Shown here: piece after piece, positions 7,435 through 41,640 of the stretch | How the letters are laid out: each line of letters opens with the position of its first letter | How positions within the stretch are numbered: position 1 is the stretch's first letter | The notes under the pieces: model-generated | What the model saw: only the letters and a program-made list of their open reading frames with translations | What the model was told of the DNA's origin: nothing | Databases searched by the model: none | Origin: Hydrolagus colliei | Lineage: Eukaryota | Direction of reading: 5' to 3' | NCBI GenBank assembly: GCA_035084275.1 | Contig: CM068748.1 | Location: 6,820,001 to 6,884,000, forward strand | DNA: 64,000 bases | Position numbers and translations under genes: made by a program

Positions 7435-9363
7435 CTGCTTGACCTGTTTATGGTATGGGACTGGTCTACATATCTAGCTGATTATGGGCAAGCTACATCA
7501 AAGTACCTAAGAGTAAATCCCAGCGCAGCTCTGACACTTCTTGAGAAGTAAGTAGTTTTTCGTTGCTTGTTTTTTATGTGCACATTTTAGAACATAAAAC
7601 TTAATATGTAACTGTGCAAGGTTTAAGCTTCAATATTTTGAAATGGGTTGCATTCTGGAAAATAATTAAACTGCTTTTGGTTTAGTCTATTGTGCTTCTT
7701 GCTTTCCCGTTTATTGTTTTGTATTTATTCATGCTCTGTTGCTTATTTTCTGCTTTAGATCAAAAACTAATATCATTTAAATATGTATACACATTTTCAA
7801 GCTGCACCTTACAAACTCTTGTGCATAAATATCACAATTAGAAACTAGAATTTTTTTTGCAAACCATTCAGTTACACCAGAATTTCAAGTGTTCATTCAA
7901 CAACAACAAATTGCATTTAAAAAATGCCTTTGATGTCAGGAGGACATCTTCTTATAAAGCATTTCTGTACATTAATACACATAGATCATCATCTTTTCAT
8001 GCTACCTGGAATTGTCCTTTCTAATTGTTTTGAACACCTTTGACTTTTTCTCATCATTATCATTCTTTTTGCTGAATTGTTGCAATACAGAGTCAACAGA
8101 GGGTAAGTATTTTGCATATTCGAGGTACTGGCACTCATTCAGTGTTGTAAATTACATTTTTGTGGTTCTATTGGGGATTGCACTTTCAATTTTGTTGGTT
8201 GCTTTCATGATGTGCCTGTTTGATCCACCAATAGCTGATTGGAAAAAAGCACTGCCTTGTATAGCATTAAGTCCTACAGAGAAAAGGGTCAAAGGTTCAA
8301 ATGCTGGATTTTGCTGAGCCTGCTCATCTTAGTCAAGGTAGCAGTAGTAGTGATGCTACATTGGTGGCTAGGGGCCCTGGATTAGGGAAGGAAAAAAATT
8401 GCCTTTATTCCTACTCTTGATTTAAGAATTGTGCACATAGGATGGTTGGGGGCAGGTTTCGGCTCAGCTTTCCTATCTCCATTGTGGAAAGACTTGCTGA
8501 CACTTTGTTCCCTCAGTTAAAAATGCTATGGGAAGAGAGCTGTCAGAACCTGTGGAAATGTTCTTGGGTTTTACTCTGTACCTTTGCACAACAGCTTGCA
8601 TGTAACTAAAAACTCTAGAAACCAATCTGTCACAGCTAAGTTGTCACAAACAAGATTTGGATGAAGAAAGCCCTTTGGCTTGTTTGGTTTTATCCTCCCA
8701 GAAAACCACCCTATCATCTTTCCCTTTCAGCATCTAGCTGTTTCTTAAATGAGTCCAGGCTTTGGTCCTCCACCACACTTACTGTCATGGTAATTCATAC
8801 CAGCTGCTGATTACCCTCTGTATAAATAAATACTTCCTGTTATCTGCCCCCAAACTTGCTCTGCACAACCCTAAACATGTGCTCTCTTGTCCCGAGGTGT
8901 CTGAAAGCATTATTGTGGGTTTATATTCTCTATTCTGTTAAGCACCTTGTATCTCTGTAAGGTCCTCTCTGAAAGGTCTCTTTTCAAAGCTTAAAAAGCT
9001 CCAGCTTATCCGGTTGTTCCTCAAAGCTCATCCCTTTAATGCTTTAATGTGATTTGCCACTCCAAGTCATACTATTAAATATCCTTATGTCAGATATTTC
9101 CTTCTGCTGTGGTTGATGATGTGCTCTTCTTTATTGTTTAATCAAGTATTGTTCGAATAAGTTTGCATGTATATTGGAAACGTTCACGTAAATATGTATA
9201 CAATTAAATAGGGTTTTTTTTTCTTCCCAGAATGAAGGATACCAGCAAAAAGAACAATATATTTTCTCAGTTCAGAAAAAATGACCGTGACAAGCAGAAA
9301 CTGATTGAGACTGTAGTGAAGCAACTGCGAAGTTTGGTGAATGGTATGTCCCAGCACACATAG
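7435..9363 (+). CDS. EXOC6: Exocyst complex component 6 (Sec15), 3' end; coding exons 7435-7547 and 9231-9363 (optional microexon 8091-8102); 5' exons lie upstream of the window
   Basis: Spliced translation LLDLFMVWDWSTYLADYGQATSKYLRVNPSAALTLLEK|MKDTSKKNNIFSQFRKNDRDKQKLIETVVKQLRSLVNGMSQHT* matches the vertebrate EXOC6 C-terminus as I recall it. Canonical ag/gt sites with a phase-2 junction (AA|A). Position next to CYP26C1/CYP26A1/MYOF favours EXOC6 over EXOC6B. Confidence 0.95.
8091..8102 (+). CDS. EXOC6: Candidate 12-nt alternative microexon of EXOC6 (gives LEK-VNRG-MKD)
   Basis: Pyrimidine tract ...ttgcaatacag|AGTCAACAGAGG|gtaagt; preserves frame between the phase-2 exons and has no stop codon. 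Confidence 0.75.
8645..9035 (-). mobile_element. CR1 LINE 3'-end remnant in the last EXOC6 intron (similar remnant at about 5600-5880)
   Basis: CATCTAGCTGTTTCTTAAATG...ATTACCCTCTGTAT...CTCTGTAAGGTCCTCTCT...CTCTTTTC resembles the reverse complement of a CR1 ORF2 end (LEKRRLRGDL); boundaries approximate. Confidence 0.5.
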
Positions 9364-17736: not shown

Positions 17737-17940
17737 ATGTTCCTGCTAGGAGTCGACTATCTGTCGGTCCTGGCCACCGCTCTCACCTCCCTGTTGTCGG
17801 TGGTGCTGCTGCTCGCTGTATCGCGACAACTATGGACTCTTGGCTGGAATATGACTAGAGACCGGGGCAACAAGCTGCCTCTGCCCAAAGGCTCAATGGG
17901 TTGGCCACTGCTGGGAGAAACCCTCCACTGGCTGGTACAG
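17737..17940 (+). CDS. CYP26C1: CYP26C1 exon 1 (coding part)
   Basis: ATG at 17737, [12 protein letters not shown]...HWLVQ|gtaaga. Confidence 0.93.
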
Positions 17941-20900
17941 GTAAGAAAGACACGTTTGTACTTGTTCATATTTTTTTTAAAAGCAAAGAATCACTTTTGT
18001 TTTCGCTAATACCAATATCTATTGAAACGTTTGATTGGTAATTGATTTCCTCCCGCTGTAAAGATGGGCAGCTAGCTCTGCTTCCATCGTGAAATGAGTT
18101 CCCTGCGAATTATGAAAATGCTGACAAAAGTCTTTTAGATATATGCGGGGGACGACGGGTTTGCGGGGTTATGGGGAGAGAGAGCCTTGACTTTGAATAG
18201 CTCTTTTCAAAGAGCCGGCACAGACTCGATTGGCCGAATGGCCTCATTTTGTGCTGTAAAATTCAATGATTCTACTGTATATATTTTCCATAGACAATGT
18301 TAGCCAGTGGGTAGCTACCAACAAATTCAGATTGCTCTGAAGTCGCTGGTGGGGTTTTCTCTACGGCTACTAAACACTCTTTTCATGGACGTCACTTGTT
18401 TTAAACAATTATTTAGATTTAGATTTATTTAATTGCTGTGATTCCCTTAAACGGTTCTTCCTTAACTGGCAGGAGCTCAGAGTTACTGTTCTTTGAAGCT
18501 GTAAAGATGACTAACGCGAAAATGTGCCCGAAGAAAAATTGCTTTCATATTATCAGATTACATCCCCAACCTACACGTAAAAATATAAATTATTGCCTTG
18601 GAAGTTTTCAATAACATGCGTAAGACAGACAGACACCAGGAGGACAGAAACTTTATAGAAAGGCCTTAAAAATAGTAATGGTAAATGTACTTAATCCGAA
18701 TGGAAAGCTGAAGCTTCTCATGATTTCCAAACTATATCGTTCCACACTCTATCGTGAGTTTTCGGGAAGGTGGTAGACTTAAAGTAAACACTGGGTTTGA
18801 TATTGTAGAGAGAGAGAGAGAGAAAGATGCGTCCCAATCGCAAGCAACTAAGAGGCGCTGGACTGTTTCTGCAGCTGTACTGTGCGTGTTAAGTGTTGCA
18901 AACGCATTAAACACGAATTAACGAAGGCTTGGGCGAGGCGAGAAGTAGACATATTTGCCTAAACATGATCAGATGAAAAGGTCTGAGGTCTGTCTCGCTG
19001 TTTCCTGGAGCGGCAGGCAGCTTCCCGAGGCTCTGAAAACACGCTTCAGGGTTTGATAGACCTTCGGGTTAGTTCTTCATGTCTCCAAACAAGCGGCCGA
19101 GAAAACTGAAAACAACTTAGTTTTTTTTGGGGGGTGGGGGGGTCGCATGGATTCTGATCTAGTTTGCTGTACAGGCGGTTGCAGTCACTTCGGAAAACAC
19201 TTCCTTAAAAGCTTCAGCGAACAGACAGGCTGCACAGATGAATGACTTTCTCTGTGAGGTTGTGTGTTTTTTTTTGTTGCTTCTTGCAGGGCTCCAACTT
19301 CCACGCTTCGAGGAGAGACAAGTATGGGAATGTCTTCAAGACGCATCTTTTGGGTAAACCGGTGATCCGAGTGACAGGTGCTGAGAACATCCGCAAAATC
19401 CTGATGGGGGAACACACTCTGGTCAGCGCCCAGTGGCCGCAGAGCACACGGATCATCTTAGGCTTCAATACACTGGCCAACTCCATTGGGGAGCTGCACC
19501 GCCAGAGAAGGAGAGTAAGTGTACAGCACTGGGGAGGGGTGGGGGGGGGGGGGGGGGGGGGGAGGTGGTGGGGGGGGTGGGGAGAGAGAGAGAGGCAAGT
19601 ATTTGTTTAGAAATAATAATATATATTGTTTAAAAAGCAACTGTCATACTGTGTGTGACTCCCCGAATTTTTTTTTTTTTTGCAACCTGTGGGTGAGTGA
19701 TCAGAAACACTGTTTGAGGGCAGCGGGACAGGACGGGGCAGGGCAGGGAATAGGACGGGAATGGACAGAAAGCCGCCGGTTACCGTCAGACCGAAAACCT
19801 CGGGTCTGTGGAGTGAATACAACCAGCCCTCACTAATGTCCGGCTTGTCCATTCGAATATCTCCCGGTCCTTCAGGGGTTGTGTCCATACGGTATCCTCT
19901 GGGTGTGCAGTAGTCGTCCGTTGCTACGCGAGTAGGCACTTTGCCAAGTGATTCGCTAAGTTAATCATTGGACAGACATGGAGATGGAACGACAACCACA
20001 ACAACCCTGATTAATTTTTTTTAAAGAAAAAAAATAAAACAATCTATATATCTCCACCAATTGGTGTTGGCAGATCTTGGCTAAAGTCTTCAGTCACTCG
20101 GCTCTGGACGGTTACATGCCTCGGATTCAGCAGGTGGTGAGCAGTCAGATCCGGGGCTGGTGTGGAGAGCGGGGCGCGGTGAGTGTCTACCCCGCCAGCA
20201 AAGCGCTGACTTTCCACATTGCCGTCCGCATCCTCCTCGGGCTGCGGGTCACAGAGCAGCAGCTCACTCACTTCGCCGACATCTTCGAGCAGCTGATGGA
20301 CAACATCTTTTCGCTGCCTTTGGACATTCCCTTCAGCGGTCTGCGCAAGGTAAGAGGCAAGGCGCCAGCCATGCTGTGTAGTGTATGTGTGTGTACATGC
20401 GAGTGTGTGTGTGTGTGTGTCTGCCTCTCTACCCGTCTCTCAGTTCATTCCTCACCAGCACCGCCGCCACAACCTGGTTCTCATCGACCCTTGCTCTCAG
20501 ATGGATTTCAGGCTGATTACATACAGACCAATGGAATAGACATAAAATATGTTTTTTTTTTAACCTTTCAGTTGTGTTCACATTTAAACTCAGTTTGTCA
20601 GTCCTGTGTCTTTTTTTGTTCCAGACTATGATGTTCTAGCAGATCAGTAGTGTACCCCCCCCCCCCCCCCCACCCCCTCCTCTCTCTCTCTCTCTCTATA
20701 TAATATATATAAGACTCTGTCGCTCCCAGTACAGTCATTTCTAAAGTCTTCTTCTCTACAGCTAGCCAAACAACACTGATGCCTTGGAACTTGAAACCGT
20801 GGCTCTCCTTCCATCGCCGGTGTTATGAATGTTGCAGGATTGTGTGTGTGTGTGTGTTAGAAAACAAAATGCACTTTCTTAATGCGCTAGAATTCTAGAA

Positions 20901-23900
20901 TTAATCTTTTCACGGGGTTTGCGTGCAAACGTTTGTTTCCAGGATATCATGTATTCCACCTGTGACATTTCAAACTGAATGCTGAGTGCTTGCGGGGTGT
21001 TTGATAAATGCCAACGCCTCAGTGAGCCGTGACGGTAGATTGATACTGGAACATCCCAACCTTTGCGGAAAATGGCGTAACTGAAAGAGACGTCGAATTT
21101 TCCCCACCTGTGTTAGAACATTATATGTCGGGAAATCTCCCAATGGAAACCGCACCGGGCGTGGATCCGTTTAAGTTATTGTTATTGCCATTTAAATAGG
21201 GTATCAAAGCACGCGATACACTGCACGAATATTTGGAGAAAGCAATTAGAGAGAAACTACAGAAGAACATTTCGGGCGATTACCCAGATGCACTGGATTT
21301 TATGCTGAACAGCGCCAGGGAGCATGGAAAAGAGCTCAGCCTCCAGGAGCTAAAGGTAATAGGATCCCAACTCCGAGGAGATCCTCATTTCTTTCATCCC
21401 ATATTCTCCTCCAGTGGTTTCCTTTCTGTTTACACAATGTTTAATTTGCCATTCCCATTACCTCTCCTCTTTGTTTTCCCCTCTCTCCCCCCCACCCCCC
21501 CCCCCCCCCCCGCAGCCTAATTCACAAACAAATACATTCGTTTGTATGATAGANNNNNNNNNNNNNNNNNNNNNNNNNNNNNNNNNNNNNNNNNNNNNNN
21601 NNNNNNNNNNNNNNNNNNNNNNNNNNNNNNNNNNNNNNNNNNNNNNNNNNNNNNNNNNNNNNNNNNNNNNNNNNNNNNNNNNNNNNNNNNNNNNNNNNNN
21701 NNNNNNNNNNNNNNNNNNNNNNNNNNNNNNNNNNNNNNNNNNNNNNNNNNNNNTGCCACTTTCTGGTCTAGAAATCATGTATTTGACTTCTAGATACTCA
21801 CGGAGTTTCACTTTTGAGGGGAAATCATTGGCTGCTCTTGGAAGAGAAGCTTTGCGCCTCGATTATTGTAGGACACATGCTAGAGCACGTGTATGGCAGA
21901 CATGGAAGGTACATGTAAAGTATATATGTGCGATACAAGTAGGGCACATGGAAGGTGCATGTACGACACATGTAGGGCATATGTATTATAAATACAGTTT
22001 AGTCCCTTGATCCCTTGAATTTTACTGTTTCACTGCCCATTTCAAGATCAGGCCAGTTGATTATTTTATCAGTTGGTTATTTTGCCTAACACACTATAGT
22101 ATTTTTTTTTACCGGAGGACGGTGAATGCTAAATGTTTTGATATTGGGTTGATCGAAGAATTTAACGGATTGAAAGTTTCAGAGGGGGAAAATGCCCAAC
22201 TTCACTCTTTTCTACTCTATTGCACGGATATGAATGAACATCTCGATTGACATCAATAAAAAACATCAATATTCTATTCATTCCTATCCACCGACACGCC
22301 AGTAGAGCTGAAACAATTAATGCTTTAGTAAATCCCATGCCCAAATCGTGGCTGAAACTTCATTAAATCGTTTTAAGATGCATAACTAGCGAGCAGTGAC
22401 AAGGTGGAAATATTCAATTGGCGTGGAGTTTGGGTAGGGATATTTTTTGATGGAAGAATTTGAGCAAAGTGGGCTTCAGCAATACTGGAGAAGGTCTCCG
22501 TCCAAGGCTATATACTAATAGACTAAACCTCGAGGAAACCCAATAAACTGATAATACTGGGGTTGGGATTGGCGGGGAGGGGGGTGGTGGGGGAGGGGGT
22601 TGCATGCAGGAGAGCTTGAGTCCCTCCTCTGTTCAGTGTTGGTACTGCTTGTAGCGGAACATGGAGAAATTTGAGCTCATTGACAAAAAGCGATGACTTG
22701 TACCATAATGTCTGGGTGCCACTGGTTGGGTCTTTTCAATAAAGATTCGGATTCCAGCGCTCAATTCACATGAACCATGGAATTACTGTAGTTGGGAAAT
22801 TCTCCATTGCTCAGCCGACTGATCGGAGCCAACATACAGATATGCAACCACTACTGCTTTGTGAAAAAAAATCTATTGGTCGTTAGCTTTAACGTACAAG
22901 GAAAAATAATAAAACATTAACAGAATTTTTTTTACACACACTGGATTTGACTCGATACCACTCACACTAGAAGCCCATTGGTCAAGAAATGGCTATTCGT
23001 GTTTAACCCAAACACCGAAAGGTGTAAGACCTTATATAACTTCACAGCTTTACAACTTGGACTTATCCAACATCCACATAAGGCACTTTTCTCAGAGAGG
23101 GCTGTGATGTGGGATTGCATTAGCGACCAGGACTGAGAACCCTGGTCGATACTTGTGCCCAGATCAGATGAGATTAGGCAGCTAAGGCGTCTTAATGTCT
23201 CTCTCTCTCTCTCTCTCTCTGAGCATTTTCCTTGTGTTTAGGAATCTGCCGTCGAGTTGATCTTTGCCGCTTTCGCCACCACGGCCAGTGCCAGCACATC
23301 ACTGATGCTGCAGCTGCTCCAGAACGGGCAGGTCCTGGAGAAAATGAGGCAGGAATTGGAACAGCACGGTTTGATCCGGGACGATTGCGAATGGAATCGA
23401 CAACTCGCCACCCAGGATAAAACGACTCTCCACAAGCCCAGTCAACAGCAGTCCTGCAGCCCCTCGGGCAATCTCACAACTCATCACAGAACCTCAGCCC
23501 TGGGGAAACGGACTCCGGATGCAAACTGCCACCAGTCTTCCTGCATCCAAGAGAACCCAGACCGAGACGGTGTTTGCCACACACCACACACCGCCGCCTC
23601 GGATAGAATAGTCCAGGGTAAGGATTGCCAACGGATAAACATCAGCGAAGAGAAAGGCATCCAGGATACAGAGGGTCTGCAATCCCACCACACCCCGGCT
23701 AGTGATTGCCGGCCCGACCCTCACTCACAGGGGAAGGGGACAGAGAGTGAGAAATGGCAAATGTCCCAGGACAGTGGACACCAGCGCTATCTGAACCTGG
23801 AAACGTTGAGTCGCCTGCGCTATCTGGACTGTGTGATCAAGGAGGTGTTGAGACTGCTCCCCCCGGTCTCTGGGGGCTACAGGACAGCGCTGCAAACCTT

Positions 23901-26127
23901 CGAGTTGGATGTAAGTGGCGTTGAGTGAGAACCAAAATACACACACACATACACACACACACGCTCTTTCCAAGTTAGCCTCGATAAACCGGAAACATTG
24001 TTGAGTAAAAGTCAAGTCGGTTTGATTTCAACTGTGATGCGAAAAAAAACAGTCCTCAAAGCGAATCACGCAGTTAAATCGTTTCTAACGATTATTTTTG
24101 CTTTGTTATCTTCTTTTAAAAAGAAACATCGCCTGTCTATTATGTTAAGCTTTAACTGTGTTGAGTGTGTCTCAGGAGAGCTGGCTATGGTTTGGTTTTC
24201 ATGTAGGGTTTATTGCCTCAAGCTACATTTTTTTTCCCTTTCATCCGTATAAAATCGTGATCATTCAAAAAAAAAGTCTCGTACACATTAGGAGCGAATA
24301 GATCCCCCCCCCCACATACACACACACACACACACATTCGGCAAACGTGGGAGTACAGCTGGGTTGAGAGAGAGGGGACATTTCAAAAGAAAGGCTTTAA
24401 GTGATGAAATCCACACCGTTTGATGAGATGAATCCGAAGTAATGATCAAAGATAAACATTTCCAATTCTTCCCTAATGCTGGGGGGAAGCCACACCTGCG
24501 AGATATTTCTCCTTGTGTGATGTGGTTCCTTTATACTTTAAAACATTCACAGCAGAATATCATATGACAATATGTAAAATACAGAGAGAGCTCCATATAT
24601 CAACAGAAGCTCTGTTGACGTTGATCTCTCCCAGTCCTTGGCATACTATTTTGAGGCTGATTTCTAGCAATTGATATGTACTACGTGTTTATTATTATTA
24701 TTATTTATAAGGAGGTGCGAGCCATGATTATTATCAGAAGATGAGCGAGCTTGTTCTAGCTACAATGAATTGAAAAATAATCCAGAACCCTGTGACACTC
24801 ATATGCCATACATCCTTTGATTCCTGTTTATTTCCACATTTTGGTTTGAGAAACGCTAAAGGGATCTGGTACACTTTGTACAGGCTTTTTAGGGGGGTTT
24901 AGAGTACACAGTGCATGTTGTGCTCTGTTCAAATATATAAAGTCTATATCAGGTCTAAATACGTTTTGGGACAGCTAAACAAATGGTGTGATAAATATAA
25001 GCATCTATCTTGCACATGTAAACCAGATGACAGATATACATGCAAACATTTAAACTAATGTATCTTAAAAGCTGTATCCTAGTGAAACACAGTCCATATA
25101 CATGTTTATACATATAAACTGTAACGTGTCCAAACACATAGGCAACCAAGTTTGTCTTGAAGCTTTTTCTGTTATTTGCTATTATTCCGAAGTGATTTTT
25201 CTTTTAACTACAATATTTCGAAAGAAGTGATATTCTCAGGTATCAGTTCACCTCAAACAAACCATTAAATCCAGATACAAAGTATTCGATGAAACCCAAA
25301 TTTTATTTCAATGAATGTACATGAGCAGATCTAAAATATTGTTTCTGAAGTGTTATACAGTATTTATAAAATAATGTGTATAGAACCATCTAAAACCTAC
25401 TGACCAACAGGATTAATTATATTCATGGGACAGGTACTGGCTGTATTGGTTAGTTATTAAATATGATATTATATTCATATTTCACTTAGAACCTACATTG
25501 TATTGTCCATGGAAATGCTGGTTAACCATCTAAAGGGTTCTGAGCAGTGATTTCGAAACAAAAATACATTTATTTAATGTTTTCATATTCAAAGGGAATT
25601 AGATAGCAGTGGCTAAAACAAATTCGAGTATGTGAGATAGAATATGTAGTAACATTTTGGTAGTATTTATTTCTAGCTGTCCAGATGGACTGAAAATGCC
25701 GTTTTCTCGTCTTGTGCATTCCTATGTTATAGATAGCAATGATCTGCCTTCTTCCTAGGGGTGCCAGATTCCCAAAGGTTGGAATATTATATACAGCATC
25801 CGTGACACGCAAGAGACTGCTGCTGTCTTCCTGAATCCTGACACGTTTGATCCTGATCGCTTTGGACCAGAACGGGACGAGAGCAAAAAGGGACGATTCA
25901 ATTACATCCCCTTTGGAGCTGGTGTTCGGAGCTGCATAGGCAAAGAGCTAGCACAGGTGATCCTAAAAATCCTGGCGATTGAATTAACCAGCGCGGCGAG
26001 GTGGGAATTGGTGACTGCGACCTACCCTAAGATGCAGACTGTTCCTGTGGTGCACCCCGTGGATGGGCTGAAAGTTAGATTTCATCGTGTGGATGCAAAG
26101 GGAAACAAGTTACCCACAGAGGAATAA
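17737..26127 (+). CDS. CYP26C1: Cytochrome P450 26C1 (retinoic acid hydroxylase); exons 17737-17940, 19290-19514, 20074-20349, 21200-21355, 23242-23910, 25759-26127; 632 aa
   Basis: N-terminal anchor, [23 protein letters not shown]-helix [16 protein letters not shown]-helix EVLR, PDRF and heme motif [10 protein letters not shown]. All six exons join in phase 0 with GT-AG. The GETLHWLVQ motif and the position between EXOC6 and CYP26A1 favour C1 over B1. Confidence 0.93.
19290..19514 (+). CDS. CYP26C1: CYP26C1 exon 2
   Basis: ttgcag|[22 protein letters not shown]...HRQRRR|gtaagt. Confidence 0.95.
20074..20349 (+). CDS. CYP26C1: CYP26C1 exon 3
   Basis: ggcag|[11 protein letters not shown]...[14 protein letters not shown]|gtaaga. 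Confidence 0.95.
21200..21355 (+). CDS. CYP26C1: CYP26C1 exon 4
   Basis: aaatag|[16 protein letters not shown]...LSLQELK|gtaata. Confidence 0.93.
21554..21753. other. Assembly gap (200 N) in CYP26C1 intron 4
   Basis: Run of exactly 200 N, typical of a fixed-size scaffolding placeholder; true length unknown. Confidence 0.98.
23242..23910 (+). CDS. CYP26C1: CYP26C1 exon 5 (unusually long, 669 nt)
   Basis: tttag|[14 protein letters not shown]...[24 protein letters not shown]|gtaagt; open frame throughout. Confidence 0.88.
25759..26127 (+). CDS. CYP26C1: CYP26C1 exon 6 (heme-binding exon; absent from the ORF track)
   Basis: ttcctag|[21 protein letters not shown]...FDPDRF...[18 protein letters not shown]...[11 protein letters not shown]...TEE*. 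Confidence 0.95.
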   Translation, partial: GCQIPKGWNIIYSIRDTQETAAVFLNPDTFDPDRFGPERDESKKGRFNYIPFGAGVRSCIGKELAQVILKILAIELTSAARWELVTATYPKMQTVPVVHPVDGLKVRFHRVDAKGNKLPTEE

Positions 26128-36787: not shown

Positions 36788-36976
36788 ATGGTTTTATTTA
36801 CACTGTTTGCTACTTTCCTGTGCACATGTGTGCTGCCGCTGTTACTGTTCCTCGCTGCTGTGAAGCTGTGGGAGGTTTACTGTATAAGCGGAAGGGACCC
36901 GAGCTGTAAAAGTCCTCTCCCTCCAGGTTCCATGGGGTTGCCCTTCCTGGGGGAAACTCTTCAGCTGGTATTGCAG
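36788..36976 (+). CDS. CYP26A1: CYP26A1 exon 1 (coding part)
   Basis: aacATGG, MVLFTLFATFLCT...QLVLQ|gtaaga. Confidence 0.95.
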
Positions 36977-39900
36977 GTAAGATGTCAGTTTGCTGCATCA
37001 GCTTTCAAGACTCAGAACGTTTTGAAATCCCATTATTTTCTGGTCAGGGAAACCTGTGTTTTGTGTGTAAAAAAACAAACAAACAAACAAACAAATGACA
37101 GTCCAGACAAACCAACGCGCGTTGCATTGTATCGAATCAATTTACGAGTTAATGGAGGTGGAGAGAATGAAAGAATATCAATTGCTTCTAACAGGTAGAC
37201 AGACACCAGCAGAGCGGTTTCAGTTAGAAAGGCAAGGACACCTGGCAAACTTGGATCAAGGCGATGGGTAGATGGATGGGTGGATGGGTGGGTGTGCAGT
37301 GCTGGAGTTCAGCAGGTGGATGGGTGTGAGGGGGGTGGGGGGAGCCAGGTTAGAGTTTTAGACAAGCCACAATTTGGCTCGTTTGAATGCCCAACACACT
37401 GATCGATTCTCTCCATGTGTGATAAGATGGCTAACGTTTGATTCTCTTCCCACACATCTCTCCATAATATTTTTGAAATATTTTTAAAAAAAGGAGAATC
37501 ATCTTGGAGCGTTTAACAAGTAATGCGGGTGGGTGGGTGGGTGGGTGGGAGGGGAGGGGGTGGGGGAGGTTGAATTAAGAAGAATCAATTGCTCTCTCGC
37601 CCCCCCCCCCCCCCCCCCCCCCCCCCCGTAATGCAACGTAATGTTTTGCGCGTACGCGTGCATATTTTGACAGAGGTACAAATTCCTGAAGATGAAGGTA
37701 CAGAAATATGGCTACATCTACAAGACTCACCTGTTCGGGAGCCCCACGGTGCGAATCATGGGAGCCGAGAACGTGAAACAGATTTTATTGGGGGAGCACA
37801 AGCTTGTCTCGGTGCAGTGGCCGGCCTCTGTCAGGACAATCCTGGGGGCCGCCTGTCTGTCCAGCCTTCACGATTCCGAGCACAAACACAGGAAACGAGT
37901 GAGTGCACCGTTCGTTCTCAGCACACACAAGACTGTTTAACAGCTCCAGGCTTCCGCGTGTGACCCATTAACTTGGAAATGTTGGGGTTTGCATGGGGTC
38001 TGTAAGCTATTTTTTCTCTCTTTCCCCCCCCCCCCCCCCCCAAACCACCCTCTAGTTTAAATCTCAAATGTGGACCCAATAAGCACAGAGAACAGCCTGT
38101 ATTTGCATTTAACGCGAGTTTTAGCAGAATATCATTTTTGTTTCTTGCTACAAGATTTACAAATCGTGTCCCCCGTCCCCCCCGTCCCCCCCCCGCCACC
38201 TCCCACCGCAAATTCCAGGGTTGTATGTATATTACAATATAAAAGAATGATAGCCTTGACATGTCACGGATGGATGGATGGAGAGATGGTCATATCGAAT
38301 AGATGCATCTTCAAGCTCTTCAGACTAAATGTGAAAGTGGATTTCTTTTTCCTAAACCCGTGTGTGTGTGTGTGTCTGTGTGTTTGTTGAAATATTGTAG
38401 GTTATTTTGAAAGCCTTCTCCCGCGAAGCTCTGCAGAATTACATCCCGGTGATGAGCGAGGAGATCAGGGCCGGGGTGCGGGGCTGGCTGGAGGGAGGCA
38501 CCAGGGTGTTGGTTTACCCCGAGATGAAGCGGCTCATGTTCGGAATCGCCATGAGGATCTTGCTTGGTTTCGAGCCAGGAGAGACCAACCAGCAAACCCA
38601 ACAGCAGCTGGTTGAAGCCTTCGAGGAAATGATTCGCAATCTCTTCTCTCTGCCCATCGACGTGCCTTTCAGCGGCTTGTACCGGGTGAGTTACCCACTC
38701 GACTGCAGCAGCTAAGATCCCCAACTCTAAATTTGACTCGGGGAGTTAAGGTTGGGAGAGGTTTCAGGCTGGGAGACGTATTATTTTTCCTTCTTTCTTT
38801 CACGTTAACCCTGTCATCATTAACACGATCGGTTATATCGCCTGATCTACTGCGTGTTACCGGGAAATTTCGGTGATAAGAGACAGAAATCGCCAAAGAG
38901 GCTACACCCAAACACCACATTAGATATTTTAATGCCTTTTAAGGTTTCTTCACAGGAGGATTTTGACCATGGCTTTGTTTGTTTGGTTTGTTTGACTGAC
39001 AGGGGCTGAAGGCTCGGAATGTAATCCATGCAAAAATTGAAGAAAACATCAGGAAAAAGATGGCTAAACGGGACACTACTGACCAGTTCAAAGACGTGCT
39101 GCAGTTACTGATTGAACACTCGCAAAGGGACGACGAACCTCTGCGTTTACAGGTAAAAATCCCAGCCCCCCTCCACTCCCTATCAGCACCCCCCCCACTC
39201 TACGCCTCCACCCCCTATCAGCACCCCCCCCACTCTCTATCAGCACCCCCACTCTCTATCAGCCCCGCCCACTCACTCCACCCCCCCCACTCCCTATCAG
39301 CCCCCCCACTCCCTATCAGCCACCACTCACTCCACCCCCCCCACAAACCTATCAGCCCCCCCACTCCATCCCCCCACTCCCTATCAGCCACCACCCACTC
39401 GTGTCAGAAAGTAACCCGAGACACTGAATCAGTCTTTTTTAAAAAGAAGTCACAAGGTTTTATTTTATTTTACAGTCAATTTTGGGGGGAAAATAGATCA
39501 CACGGTCACCGCCCAGTAAACCTGACTGGGCGCTTCCTCCATTCTCCAGCAATGTGCAAATGTCCACATTTCATACCAATGCAACATATTGCAACAACTG
39601 CATCTCCGCTCCCCTTTGCTGGCTTTCGTGAAGTCATTTGTGGGCAGACATTTGTGCATGAATGTAAGCATACATCTCTGTAAATAAATCTTAATATATT
39701 ATTACCCATACCGTACGGTATAAGCAACCGCAAATTTAGATTCTTCTCACCATGTGTCTGTTGCGATTACGCACCGAACGACTCAATTTTCATGGCTCAA
39801 ATTTGGCTACTGCTATTTTCTCTCTTGCATGTTAAGGAGTTGAAGGAATCTGCAACCGAGCTTCTGTTTGGGGGACACGAGACCACAGCCAGCACAGCCA

Positions 39901-41640
39901 CCTCCTTGGTCATGTTTCTGGGATTACATCCCGAAGTCGTGTGGAAAGTCCGAAAGGAACTGCAGGAACAGGTAAAGCCTCCCTCCCTCCCTCACTCACT
40001 GCCTCACTCCCTCACCCACTCACTCACTCCCTCCCTCACTGCCTCCCTCACTGCCTCCCTCACTCACTCACTCCCTCACTGCCTCACCCCCTTCCTCCCT
40101 CACTCACCCACTCCCTCCCTCCCTCACTGCCTCCCTCCCTCACTGCCTCCCTCCCTCACTCACTCACTCCTCCCCATCCTCTTCCCAATCTTAACTCCAA
40201 TCCTCTTGATAGCATTCCTTGTGTGAAGTTAAGAGATTATGGGAACTGGCGAACACCCATCCATTCATTCGCAACAGCAGCAAATTAACCAGTGGGGCTC
40301 GGTGTGGGACTGCTGTGTGTGGGTTTTTTTGTGTTTAACGTGGCTTTTCATGGGTTTGCAGGGATTAATGTCCAGCGATGCTCAAGAGAACAAGCAAATC
40401 ACGATTGAAGTCCTGGAACAACTTAAGTACACAGGAAGTATCATCAAAGAAACCCTTCGACTGAGTCCCCCTGTCCCCGGAGGATTCCGTGTGGCCCTAA
40501 AGACATTCGTGTTAAATGTAAGTTTTTAAATATATATATAAATAATACTAATAATTTATATATACTAATAATATATATATAATTAATACTACTAATAATG
40601 CACCATCATAAAATCATCCATTAGCGGATTCTGCATCGATTGCTTTATGTTTTTTCCGCTGCGATTTAAGGCTTCTAAGGTGAAAATCCATTTGCAAATT
40701 AACTAACCTTGAATAGCTCAAAGCTATACATCATGAATAGTTTAAAGCAGGTCTTTGTCAAGTCTCACTGATCAAGATAAGTAGTTTGGGATAATTAAGG
40801 CAAGCTGCACAGAGCTTTCACTTTCAAATAGCAAATATTACTGGCACAGCAAATAAAACTGGGAAAATTAACTTTCATGATGGATGGGTCACTTGGTTTA
40901 TCTAATGATAACTTATCAAAATCTAGGTCTGTAATCTGTGAGGAAATAATTGCAAATCTGATTTAGACAACTGAACTAGGTCCAAACCTTTTGCGTTGGA
41001 CGATTCATTGGAAATAAATAACAAACCTAGGTCATAAGGTCGTTTACAGAAGCAGTTGATAATATCTAACAATTTGTAACTAATTTCATGCTTGCCCTTT
41101 CACCCGTAGACCTATAAGGGGGCTAATTAGGGATGACTTTCAGATGTTTTAGCAGTACAGTCTAAGGAGAGAAAAAAAATAAGTATAATTCCAATATTTT
41201 AGTGACAAATTGTCTAAATCTTATTTTCGACAACTTAAAAATAGATATTCATAACAGATAGAAAATGATTCCAAATATTTTGTTTTTTTTTGCAGGGATA
41301 TCAGATCCCAAAAGGCTGGAATGTTATCTACAGTATCTGTGATACACACGATATAGCAGAAATTTTTTCCAATAAGGATGAATTTAACCCTGACCGCTTC
41401 ATGGAAGGTTGTCTGGAGAAGGATTCTTCCAGATTCAGTTATATCCCATTCGGTGGAGGCTCTCGGAGCTGTGTGGGCAAAGAATTTGCCAAAGTCCTTC
41501 TCAAGATCTTCATAATAGAGCTGGTGAGGACTTGTGATTGGGAACTTTTAAATGGACTGCCGACAATGAAGACCAGTCCCACAGTATACCCAGTGGACAA
41601 TCTGCCCACAAAATTCACAGAGTTTTATCACACAGTCTGA
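36788..41640 (+). CDS. CYP26A1: Cytochrome P450 26A1 (retinoic acid 4-hydroxylase); exons 36788-36976, 37674-37898, 38401-38685, 39003-39152, 39837-39971, 40362-40517, 41296-41640; 494 aa
   Basis: PLPPGSMGLPFLGETLQLVLQ, I-helix ELLFGGHETTAST, K-helix ETLR, PDRF, heme motif FGGGSRSCVG and C-terminal TSPTVYPVDNLPTKF. Seven phase-0 exons; the characteristic proximal DR5 RARE and TATA box lie upstream. Confidence 0.97.
37674..37898 (+). CDS. CYP26A1: CYP26A1 exon 2
   Basis: gacag|RYKFLKMKVQKYGYIYKTHLFG...HKHRKR|gtgagt. Confidence 0.95.
38401..38685 (+). CDS. CYP26A1: CYP26A1 exon 3
   Basis: ttgtag|VILKAFSREAL...FSLPIDVPFSGLYR|gtgagt. Confidence 0.95.
39003..39152 (+). CDS. CYP26A1: CYP26A1 exon 4
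   Basis: gacag|GLKARNVIHAKIEENI...EPLRLQ|gtaaaa. Confidence 0.93.
39160..39400. repeat. C-rich minisatellite (CCCCACTCCCTATCAGC-like units) in CYP26A1 intron 4
   Basis: CTATCAGC recurs 8 times between C-runs. Confidence 0.9.
39837..39971 (+). CDS. CYP26A1: CYP26A1 exon 5
   Basis: gttaag|ELKESATELLFGGHETTAS...RKELQEQ|gtaaag (AAG acceptor). Confidence 0.92.
39978..40175. repeat. Pyrimidine-rich low-complexity repeat (CCTCCCTCACTG/CACT) in CYP26A1 intron 5
   Basis: Directly visible tandem degenerate 4-12-mers starting just after the donor site. Confidence 0.9.
40362..40517 (+). CDS. CYP26A1: CYP26A1 exon 6
   Basis: ttgcag|GLMSSDAQENK...IKETLRLSPPVPGGFRVALKTFVLN|gtaagt. Confidence 0.95.
41296..41640 (+). 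CDS. CYP26A1: CYP26A1 exon 7 (coding part)
   Basis: ttgcag|GYQIPKGWNVIYSICDTHD...FGGGSRSCVGKEFAK...FYHTV*. Confidence 0.96.
   Translation, partial: GYQIPKGWNVIYSICDTHDIAEIFSNKDEFNPDRFMEGCLEKDSSRFSYIPFGGGSRSCVGKEFAKVLLKIFIIELVRTCDWELLNGLPTMKTSPTVYPVDNLPTKFTEFYHTV

Follow-up and report, generated by a model that had tools for sequence, protein, structure and literature searches.

A probable 12-nucleotide cassette microexon in the last EXOC6 intron of the chimaera Hydrolagus colliei and a candidate counterpart in EXOC6B

Since EXOC6 is an exocyst subunit, a form of this protein that is specific to neurons or photoreceptors could bear on vesicle delivery in these cells. The locus described here raises the question of whether 12 nucleotides inside the last EXOC6 intron of Hydrolagus colliei are a real, optional exon, and if so, where and under which regulator this exon would be included. 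The whole stretch of DNA that was analysed, referred to as the window, is 64,000 nucleotides long.

Judged by homology, tree position and neighbouring CYP26 genes, the gene in the window appears to be the orthologue of EXOC6 (Sec15A) and not of EXOC6B. The best protein matches of its last exon are EXOC6, and with shark EXOC6 as query, tblastn follows it over a stretch that starts some 66 kb upstream of the window and ends at position 9360. In a 19-row tree it was placed among the EXOC6 rows and outside the EXOC6B group, with a support of 94/92 that is not starred and with several forks of the tree open. Two CYP26-like genes are located downstream of EXOC6, at 17749-26085 (closer to CYP26C1) and at 36842-41604 of the window; PMC3710273 describes human EXOC6 beside two CYP26 genes at 10q23.33. 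The EXOC6B locus was identified on C1, where the last exon matches a Callorhinchus milii protein at 100% identity across 40 residues (tree grouping 100/99) and a CYP26 gene follows about 33 kb downstream. Besides this gene, one further CYP26 locus is present on C19. An exon at C15:6754274-6754399 matches one of the two alternative N-termini of fish EXOC6 isoforms.

The features of the last EXOC6 intron and its flanking exons, in positions of the window, are the following:

7435..7547, + strand: penultimate EXOC6 coding exon, ending in phase 2 (LLE-K), from translation, contigs of a relative and tblastn with shark EXOC6
8021..8044, + strand: two predicted branch-point-like motifs, at -70 and -51 from the microexon, from a simple motif scan
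8045..8090, + strand: acceptor region of the microexon with a set-back pyrimidine tract, from sequence and motif scan
8091..8102, + strand: probable 12-nt cassette microexon adding VNRG between K and MKD, from sequence and from the same or similar peptides in NCBI EXOC6 isoforms
8103..8108, + strand: donor of the microexon, consensus GTAAGT, from sequence and unchanged in the relative
9231..9363, + strand: last EXOC6 exon, coding part, 43 residues and stop, from homology and the junction 7547^9231 in contigs

The candidate exon is in phase 2/2, and its inclusion would change LEK|MKD to LEK-VNRG-MKD without a frameshift. Its acceptor CAG occupies 8088-8090, and TGC triplets are found at 8070-8072 (-21) and 8081-8083 (-10), between the pyrimidine tract and the AG. 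The original prediction had given these coordinates, the phase, the GTAAGT donor, the two TGC triplets and the resulting peptide, all of which hold in the sequence. A GTAAGT donor also directly follows the penultimate exon, and in the last exon an ATG is located at 9232 and the stop codon at 9361-9363. Applying strict signals to the 1683-nt intron yielded just two candidates, the exon at 8091-8102 and a 3-nt piece at 8100-8102 that begins after an internal CAG and shares the same donor. The 3-nt exon was set aside because a single-residue insert was found in 0 of 281 parsed EXOC6 records.

With 12 nt between CAG and GTAAGT, the candidate falls within the range of vertebrate microexons (3-27 nt, canonical AG/GT). 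Microexons regulated by SRRM3/4 are described (bioRxiv 2024.09.17.613571, PMC12871342) as having a strong donor, a branch point and a pyrimidine tract that are both set back, and UGC ahead of the AG. The chimaera exon has this layout, with a strong donor, a set-back tract and predicted branch point, and an AG-free zone of 104 nt compared with 17 nt at the acceptor of the last exon. The UGC motifs, present between tract and AG, are weakly diagnostic: the TGC background in this intron is 0.51 per 20 nt, and UGC is reported to be neither required for nor predictive of SRRM4 sensitivity. Three YCAY motifs were found at -40 to -31 upstream of the microexon. A cluster of UAG in the proximal downstream intron, as for photoreceptor exons driven by MSI1, was not found; the first TAG downstream of the donor is at +130, and the 6 TAG within 250 nt (background 2.8 per 250) are mostly beyond +225.

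The support for a real exon comes from EXOC6 proteins of other vertebrates. Among the 120 proteins listed as matches of the last exon, 93 lacked an insert at LEK|MKD, 16 carried VNRG, 6 VYRG and 3 YVx; the remaining 2 were unparsed. A second search used a query junction containing VNRG, so that its ranking favours insert-bearing forms, and returned 98 new proteins, with VYRG in 57, VHRG in 19, VNRG in 17, and IHRG and IDRG in one each. These 95 parsed records are all of the form [VI]xRG, and the remaining three, from lizards, read VHRG by eye. The carriers include teleosts, gar, the horse family, a seal, cats, the devil (a marsupial), birds, turtles, lizards and the bamboo shark, and the zebrafish record XP_017213933.1 has VNRG at the site, identical to the Hydrolagus peptide. 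Single species are annotated with both forms, the insert-bearing and the insert-free one, as NCBI isoforms. Altogether, 628 proteins were examined and 281 were parsed as EXOC6, with no insert in 143, [VI]xRG in 135 and YVx in 3, counts that refer to isoform records and not to independent observations.

The insert thus preserves the frame and is conserved across vertebrates, and we consider 8091-8102 very likely to be a real cassette exon that is already known and annotated from sharks to mammals. The prediction of a real, frame-preserving exon in the last EXOC6 intron is supported by the EXOC6 matches and the orthologous peptides. Two further expectations did not stand. Gene predictors had been expected to miss the exon, yet NCBI isoform models of many species include it, so annotation pipelines did not overlook it. 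A deeper dating had also been considered; it offers nothing new because an EXOC6-like model of another cartilaginous fish, bamboo shark isoform X4 (P0260), already carries a four-residue insert at the same site, IDRG in place of the VNRG of Hydrolagus. The chimaera is one further species for an exon that NCBI isoform models and two published tables contain already.

Beyond the vertebrate records, 50 of 148 new representatives of distant Sec15 clusters at 50% identity span the insert site, and none of the 50 has an insert of the [VI]xRG kind, a result that, coming from a single representative of each cluster, does not amount to absence; in two of them there are extra residues of an unrelated sort. 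An origin by duplication of the 5' end of the last exon was rejected as too weak, R being third after LLEK in just 3 of 47 distant Sec15 sequences. In two cyprinid NCBI models (P0145, P0148) the reading frame runs through VNRG into the downstream intron.

The tissue pattern and regulators of such an exon have been catalogued in zebrafish and human. The supplement of PMC12626424 lists a 12-nt exon of zebrafish exoc6, DreEX0031112, in the class MIC_Neural, with PSI values of 92.7 in neural tissue, 47.7 in endocrine pancreas, 28.1 in muscle and 0 in liver, testis and ovary, a rise from 0 to about 78 through development, and a dPSI of -32.3 on loss of srrm3/4. In eyes of srrm3 mutants, the tables of PMC9303857 give changes of +10.5, -1.2 and -8.9 at 48-72 hpf and of -32.3 at 5 dpf; the srrm3 dependence in zebrafish is partial and late. 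The human genomic orthologue listed in the former source, HsaEX0023471, is also 12 nt long and is classed there as NO_REG for neural regulation. The latter source gives it as a retina-enriched microexon (RetMIC) with PSI 39.1 in retina, 3.65 in neural and 1.67 in other samples, and with dPSI of +10.8 and +82.2 on MSI1, 0 on SRRM3, and 1.25, 0.52, 1.23, 0, 1.35, 0 and 10.6 in the SRRM4 columns. Unlike the zebrafish exon, the human exon is hence retina-enriched, responsive to MSI1 and nearly blind to SRRM3/4.

These VastDB events were matched to 8091-8102 by gene, length and isoform comparison rather than by mapped coordinates, and we infer that they are its orthologues. In the eight isoform pairs compared, once the alternative N-termini are set aside, VNRG is the sole internal indel of four residues. 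The zebrafish event is of the same gene and length, the zebrafish protein has VNRG in the corresponding place, and the two exons are very likely orthologous; mammalian proteins carry VHRG or IHRG there. Inclusion and srrm3 dependence have been measured for the zebrafish exon, whereas the Hydrolagus exon is known from its sequence. As the control of the human exon differs, regulation is not safely transferable between species.

In the Hydrolagus genome, a match to the SRRM_C domain at C28:6448655-6448783 (55.7 bits, above the cut-off), followed by an RS-rich exon, points to a gene of the SRRM3/4 type; an exon neighbouring the match seems to resemble the eMIC domain. The layout of the exon, the presence of this SRRM_C gene and the lack of a UAG cluster suggest that the chimaera exon resembles the zebrafish case and not the human one. 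By this analogy its inclusion would probably be enriched in neural tissue, and a dependence on SRRM3/4 appears reasonably probable, if with less assurance. In the mechanism that we propose, U1 would be recruited by the strong donor, while the acceptor would be weak because its branch point and pyrimidine tract are set back, leading to skipping by default; SRRM3/4 bound at the UGC motifs could rescue this acceptor in neurons. As a whole, we regard it as the probable explanation that 8091-8102 is an optional exon that would be skipped by default but, with the aid of SRRM3/4, spliced in by neurons and certain endocrine cells, lengthening a helix of the protein. The original assignment to the SRRM3/4-regulated neural and endocrine type stands in so far as the zebrafish counterpart is neural and endocrine and partly srrm3-dependent, while the UGC motifs on which it drew do not settle the regulator and the human exon responds to MSI1.

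The exon could also be real and biased to photoreceptors, with Musashi (MSI1) rather than SRRM3/4 as the main driver, as in human. The RetMIC status and the MSI1 and SRRM3/4 values of HsaEX0023471 speak for this, the srrm3-mutant effect in zebrafish was itself recorded in eyes, and the three upstream YCAY motifs would agree with PMC9303857, which reports that RetMICs show Nova enrichment on their upstream side. Against it, the region near the donor has no UAG cluster, with the first TAG at +130, and the zebrafish exon, which encodes the identical peptide, shows pan-neural inclusion (PSI 93) in the PMC12626424 tables. We consider MSI1-driven retinal control unlikely for the chimaera exon.

Contigs of a relative, from three runs of one study whose RNA nature is our guess, bear on the intron in two respects. 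Contigs of three runs span exactly 7435-7547 joined to 9231, and the skipped junction 7547^9231 (GT..AG) is bridged in 3 of 4 runs. The intron piece differs from the relative at 73 of 1184 nt (about 6% divergence), while 8050-8150, where a conservation peak had been predicted, contains 1 listed difference in 101 nt (binomial P about 0.012), and 8044-8109 contains none; 14 of the 15 differences in the contig piece across the microexon region were listed by place. Among the contigs listed, none joins the microexon to a neighbouring exon, which is uninformative either way since contigs drop rare variants. In three runs, contigs with a depth of 11-14 give unspliced cover of 7939-9257 through the microexon. 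This cover and the cyprinid read-through could reflect slow splicing of the last intron, or DNA in the runs. Short high-copy repeat pieces are located inside the intron at 7896-7949 and about 8650-8900, where many unrelated contigs align.

The included form was not seen in the contigs listed, and the exon might be a relic that was functional in ancestors and is seldom or never included in this lineage. Both splice sites are nevertheless of consensus type, the reading frame has no stop, zebrafish has the identical peptide and 8044-8109 is free of listed differences in the relative, which makes a relic very improbable.

The splice signals were compared with chance in 2000 dinucleotide shuffles of the last intron, a candidate being defined as a stop-free in-frame YAG|3-27 nt|GTRAG. 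Such a candidate was present in 23% of the shuffled introns, together with a pyrimidine tract and an AG-free zone in 4.9%, and with TGC in addition in 2.2%. By themselves the splice signals exceed chance just modestly and are suggestive, so that what decides the matter is that other vertebrates carry the orthologous peptide at this site. An AT-rich intron may hold splice-like signals by chance, comparable ones occurring in 2-5% of shuffles and looser ones in 23%, but chance would produce no such peptides, and this explanation is refuted by the equal or matching inserts at the site in 135 of the 281 parsed NCBI EXOC6 records, isoforms though these are and not independent.

With regard to the protein, the insert of the proposed optional exon would add about one turn to a helix near the C-terminus. 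The basic loop and the last helix behind it would be shifted, which would tune a contact surface instead of the fold. The LLEK helix before the site is conserved and nearly invariant in length across eukaryotic Sec15, and most distant Sec15 sequences have a hydrophobic residue directly after LLEK; because the insert starts with V or I in place of M, the hydrophobic register of the helix would be kept. AlphaFold2 models of two catfish isoforms that differ by VNRG, both models being of low confidence (mean pLDDT 53.1 and 59.8), place the helix end at residue 785 with the insert and 781 without it. A one-turn extension that tunes a contact is our best guess, and a weak one. The Drosophila Sec15 domain 2A2F aligns up to residue 738 of the bamboo shark protein P0260, about 30 residues before the insert, and the structure therefore does not show the site. 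The solved fly domain binds Rab11. According to the abstract of PMC12626424, deleting individual microexons in zebrafish mostly had a mild effect or none, and the VNRG insert may likewise matter little.

A second microexon candidate was identified at the paralogous site of EXOC6B in the same genome, and this counterpart is the new element of the present analysis. The last EXOC6B intron of Hydrolagus, 1310 nt long, contains a 12-nt candidate at C1:6370673-6370684 in the same phase (K-ISRA-M). Its acceptor is CAG and its donor GTAAGT; upstream there are a TGC (-14) and, further out, a branch-point-like motif (-40). Among 143 parsed EXOC6B records, 10 have an insert of the ISRA/ISRV/IHRV type, 132 have none and 1 has VVRE; ISRA is found in catshark and coelacanth, ISRV in birds, tortoise and caecilian, and IHRV in Xenopus. 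The tables of PMC7935315 list a 12-nt exon of human EXOC6B, HsaEX0023494, with PSI rising from 1.7 to 98.4 (dPSI 96.7) on SRRM4 in HEK293. Gene and length suggest that it is the ISRx exon, and the event of the paralogue would thus be strongly SRRM4-responsive in human.

The exons of the two paralogues share a length of 12 nt, the protein site, the phase and the pattern hydrophobic-x-R-small, and their likeness extends to IHRG in EXOC6 and IHRV in EXOC6B. On these shared characters, a single origin before the EXOC6/EXOC6B duplication is the simplest reading and in our view a highly probable one. A more far-reaching reading, to which we give even weight for and against, is that one pre-duplication microexon, ancestrally neural and of the SRRM3/4 type, turned in human EXOC6 into a retinal exon driven by Musashi; the SRRM3/4 architecture would then have been kept in the chimaera, and the corresponding behaviour in zebrafish exoc6 and human EXOC6B. 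If this were true, the chimaera pair would serve as an outgroup for finding the cis changes that rewire a microexon between regulators. Two 12-nt exons that occupy one site in paralogous genes and answer to different regulators in human amount to a small natural experiment on the evolution of microexon control.

Our literature search listed no paper that deals with what the four residues do or with the pair of paralogous exons; Irimia 2014, Torres-Mendez 2019 and further supplements may state the conservation between paralogues. The 12-nt exoc6 exon was not found in the supplements of PMC12626420 (12 of 13 files) and PMC7821500 (8 of 8 files), and that of PMC8797185 holds just two other Exoc6/Exoc6b exons and no Sec15.

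Another microexon candidate of EXOC6, 30 nt long and in phase 0, is located at C15:6791759-6791788, about 28 kb upstream of the window, and encodes NNVNHHAAMS. It has a TGC at -18 and an AG-free zone of 97 nt. The peptide matches an insert of the NNNNDHAAMS type that 94 of 253 parsed EXOC6 records contain, and 19 of 106 EXOC6B records have a ten-residue insert related to it; a 30-nt exon in both paralogues across species fits the pre-duplication origin of the 12-nt exon. In the Hydrolagus EXOC6B intron near C1:6343160-6344640, three AG-30-GT candidates were found, none of them matching, and the 30-nt EXOC6B exon was possibly lost in this lineage. At about 1000-2000 of the window, the sequence looks by eye like what we take to be a decayed LINE-type retroelement, with a tRNA-like SINE piece near 1205-1280.
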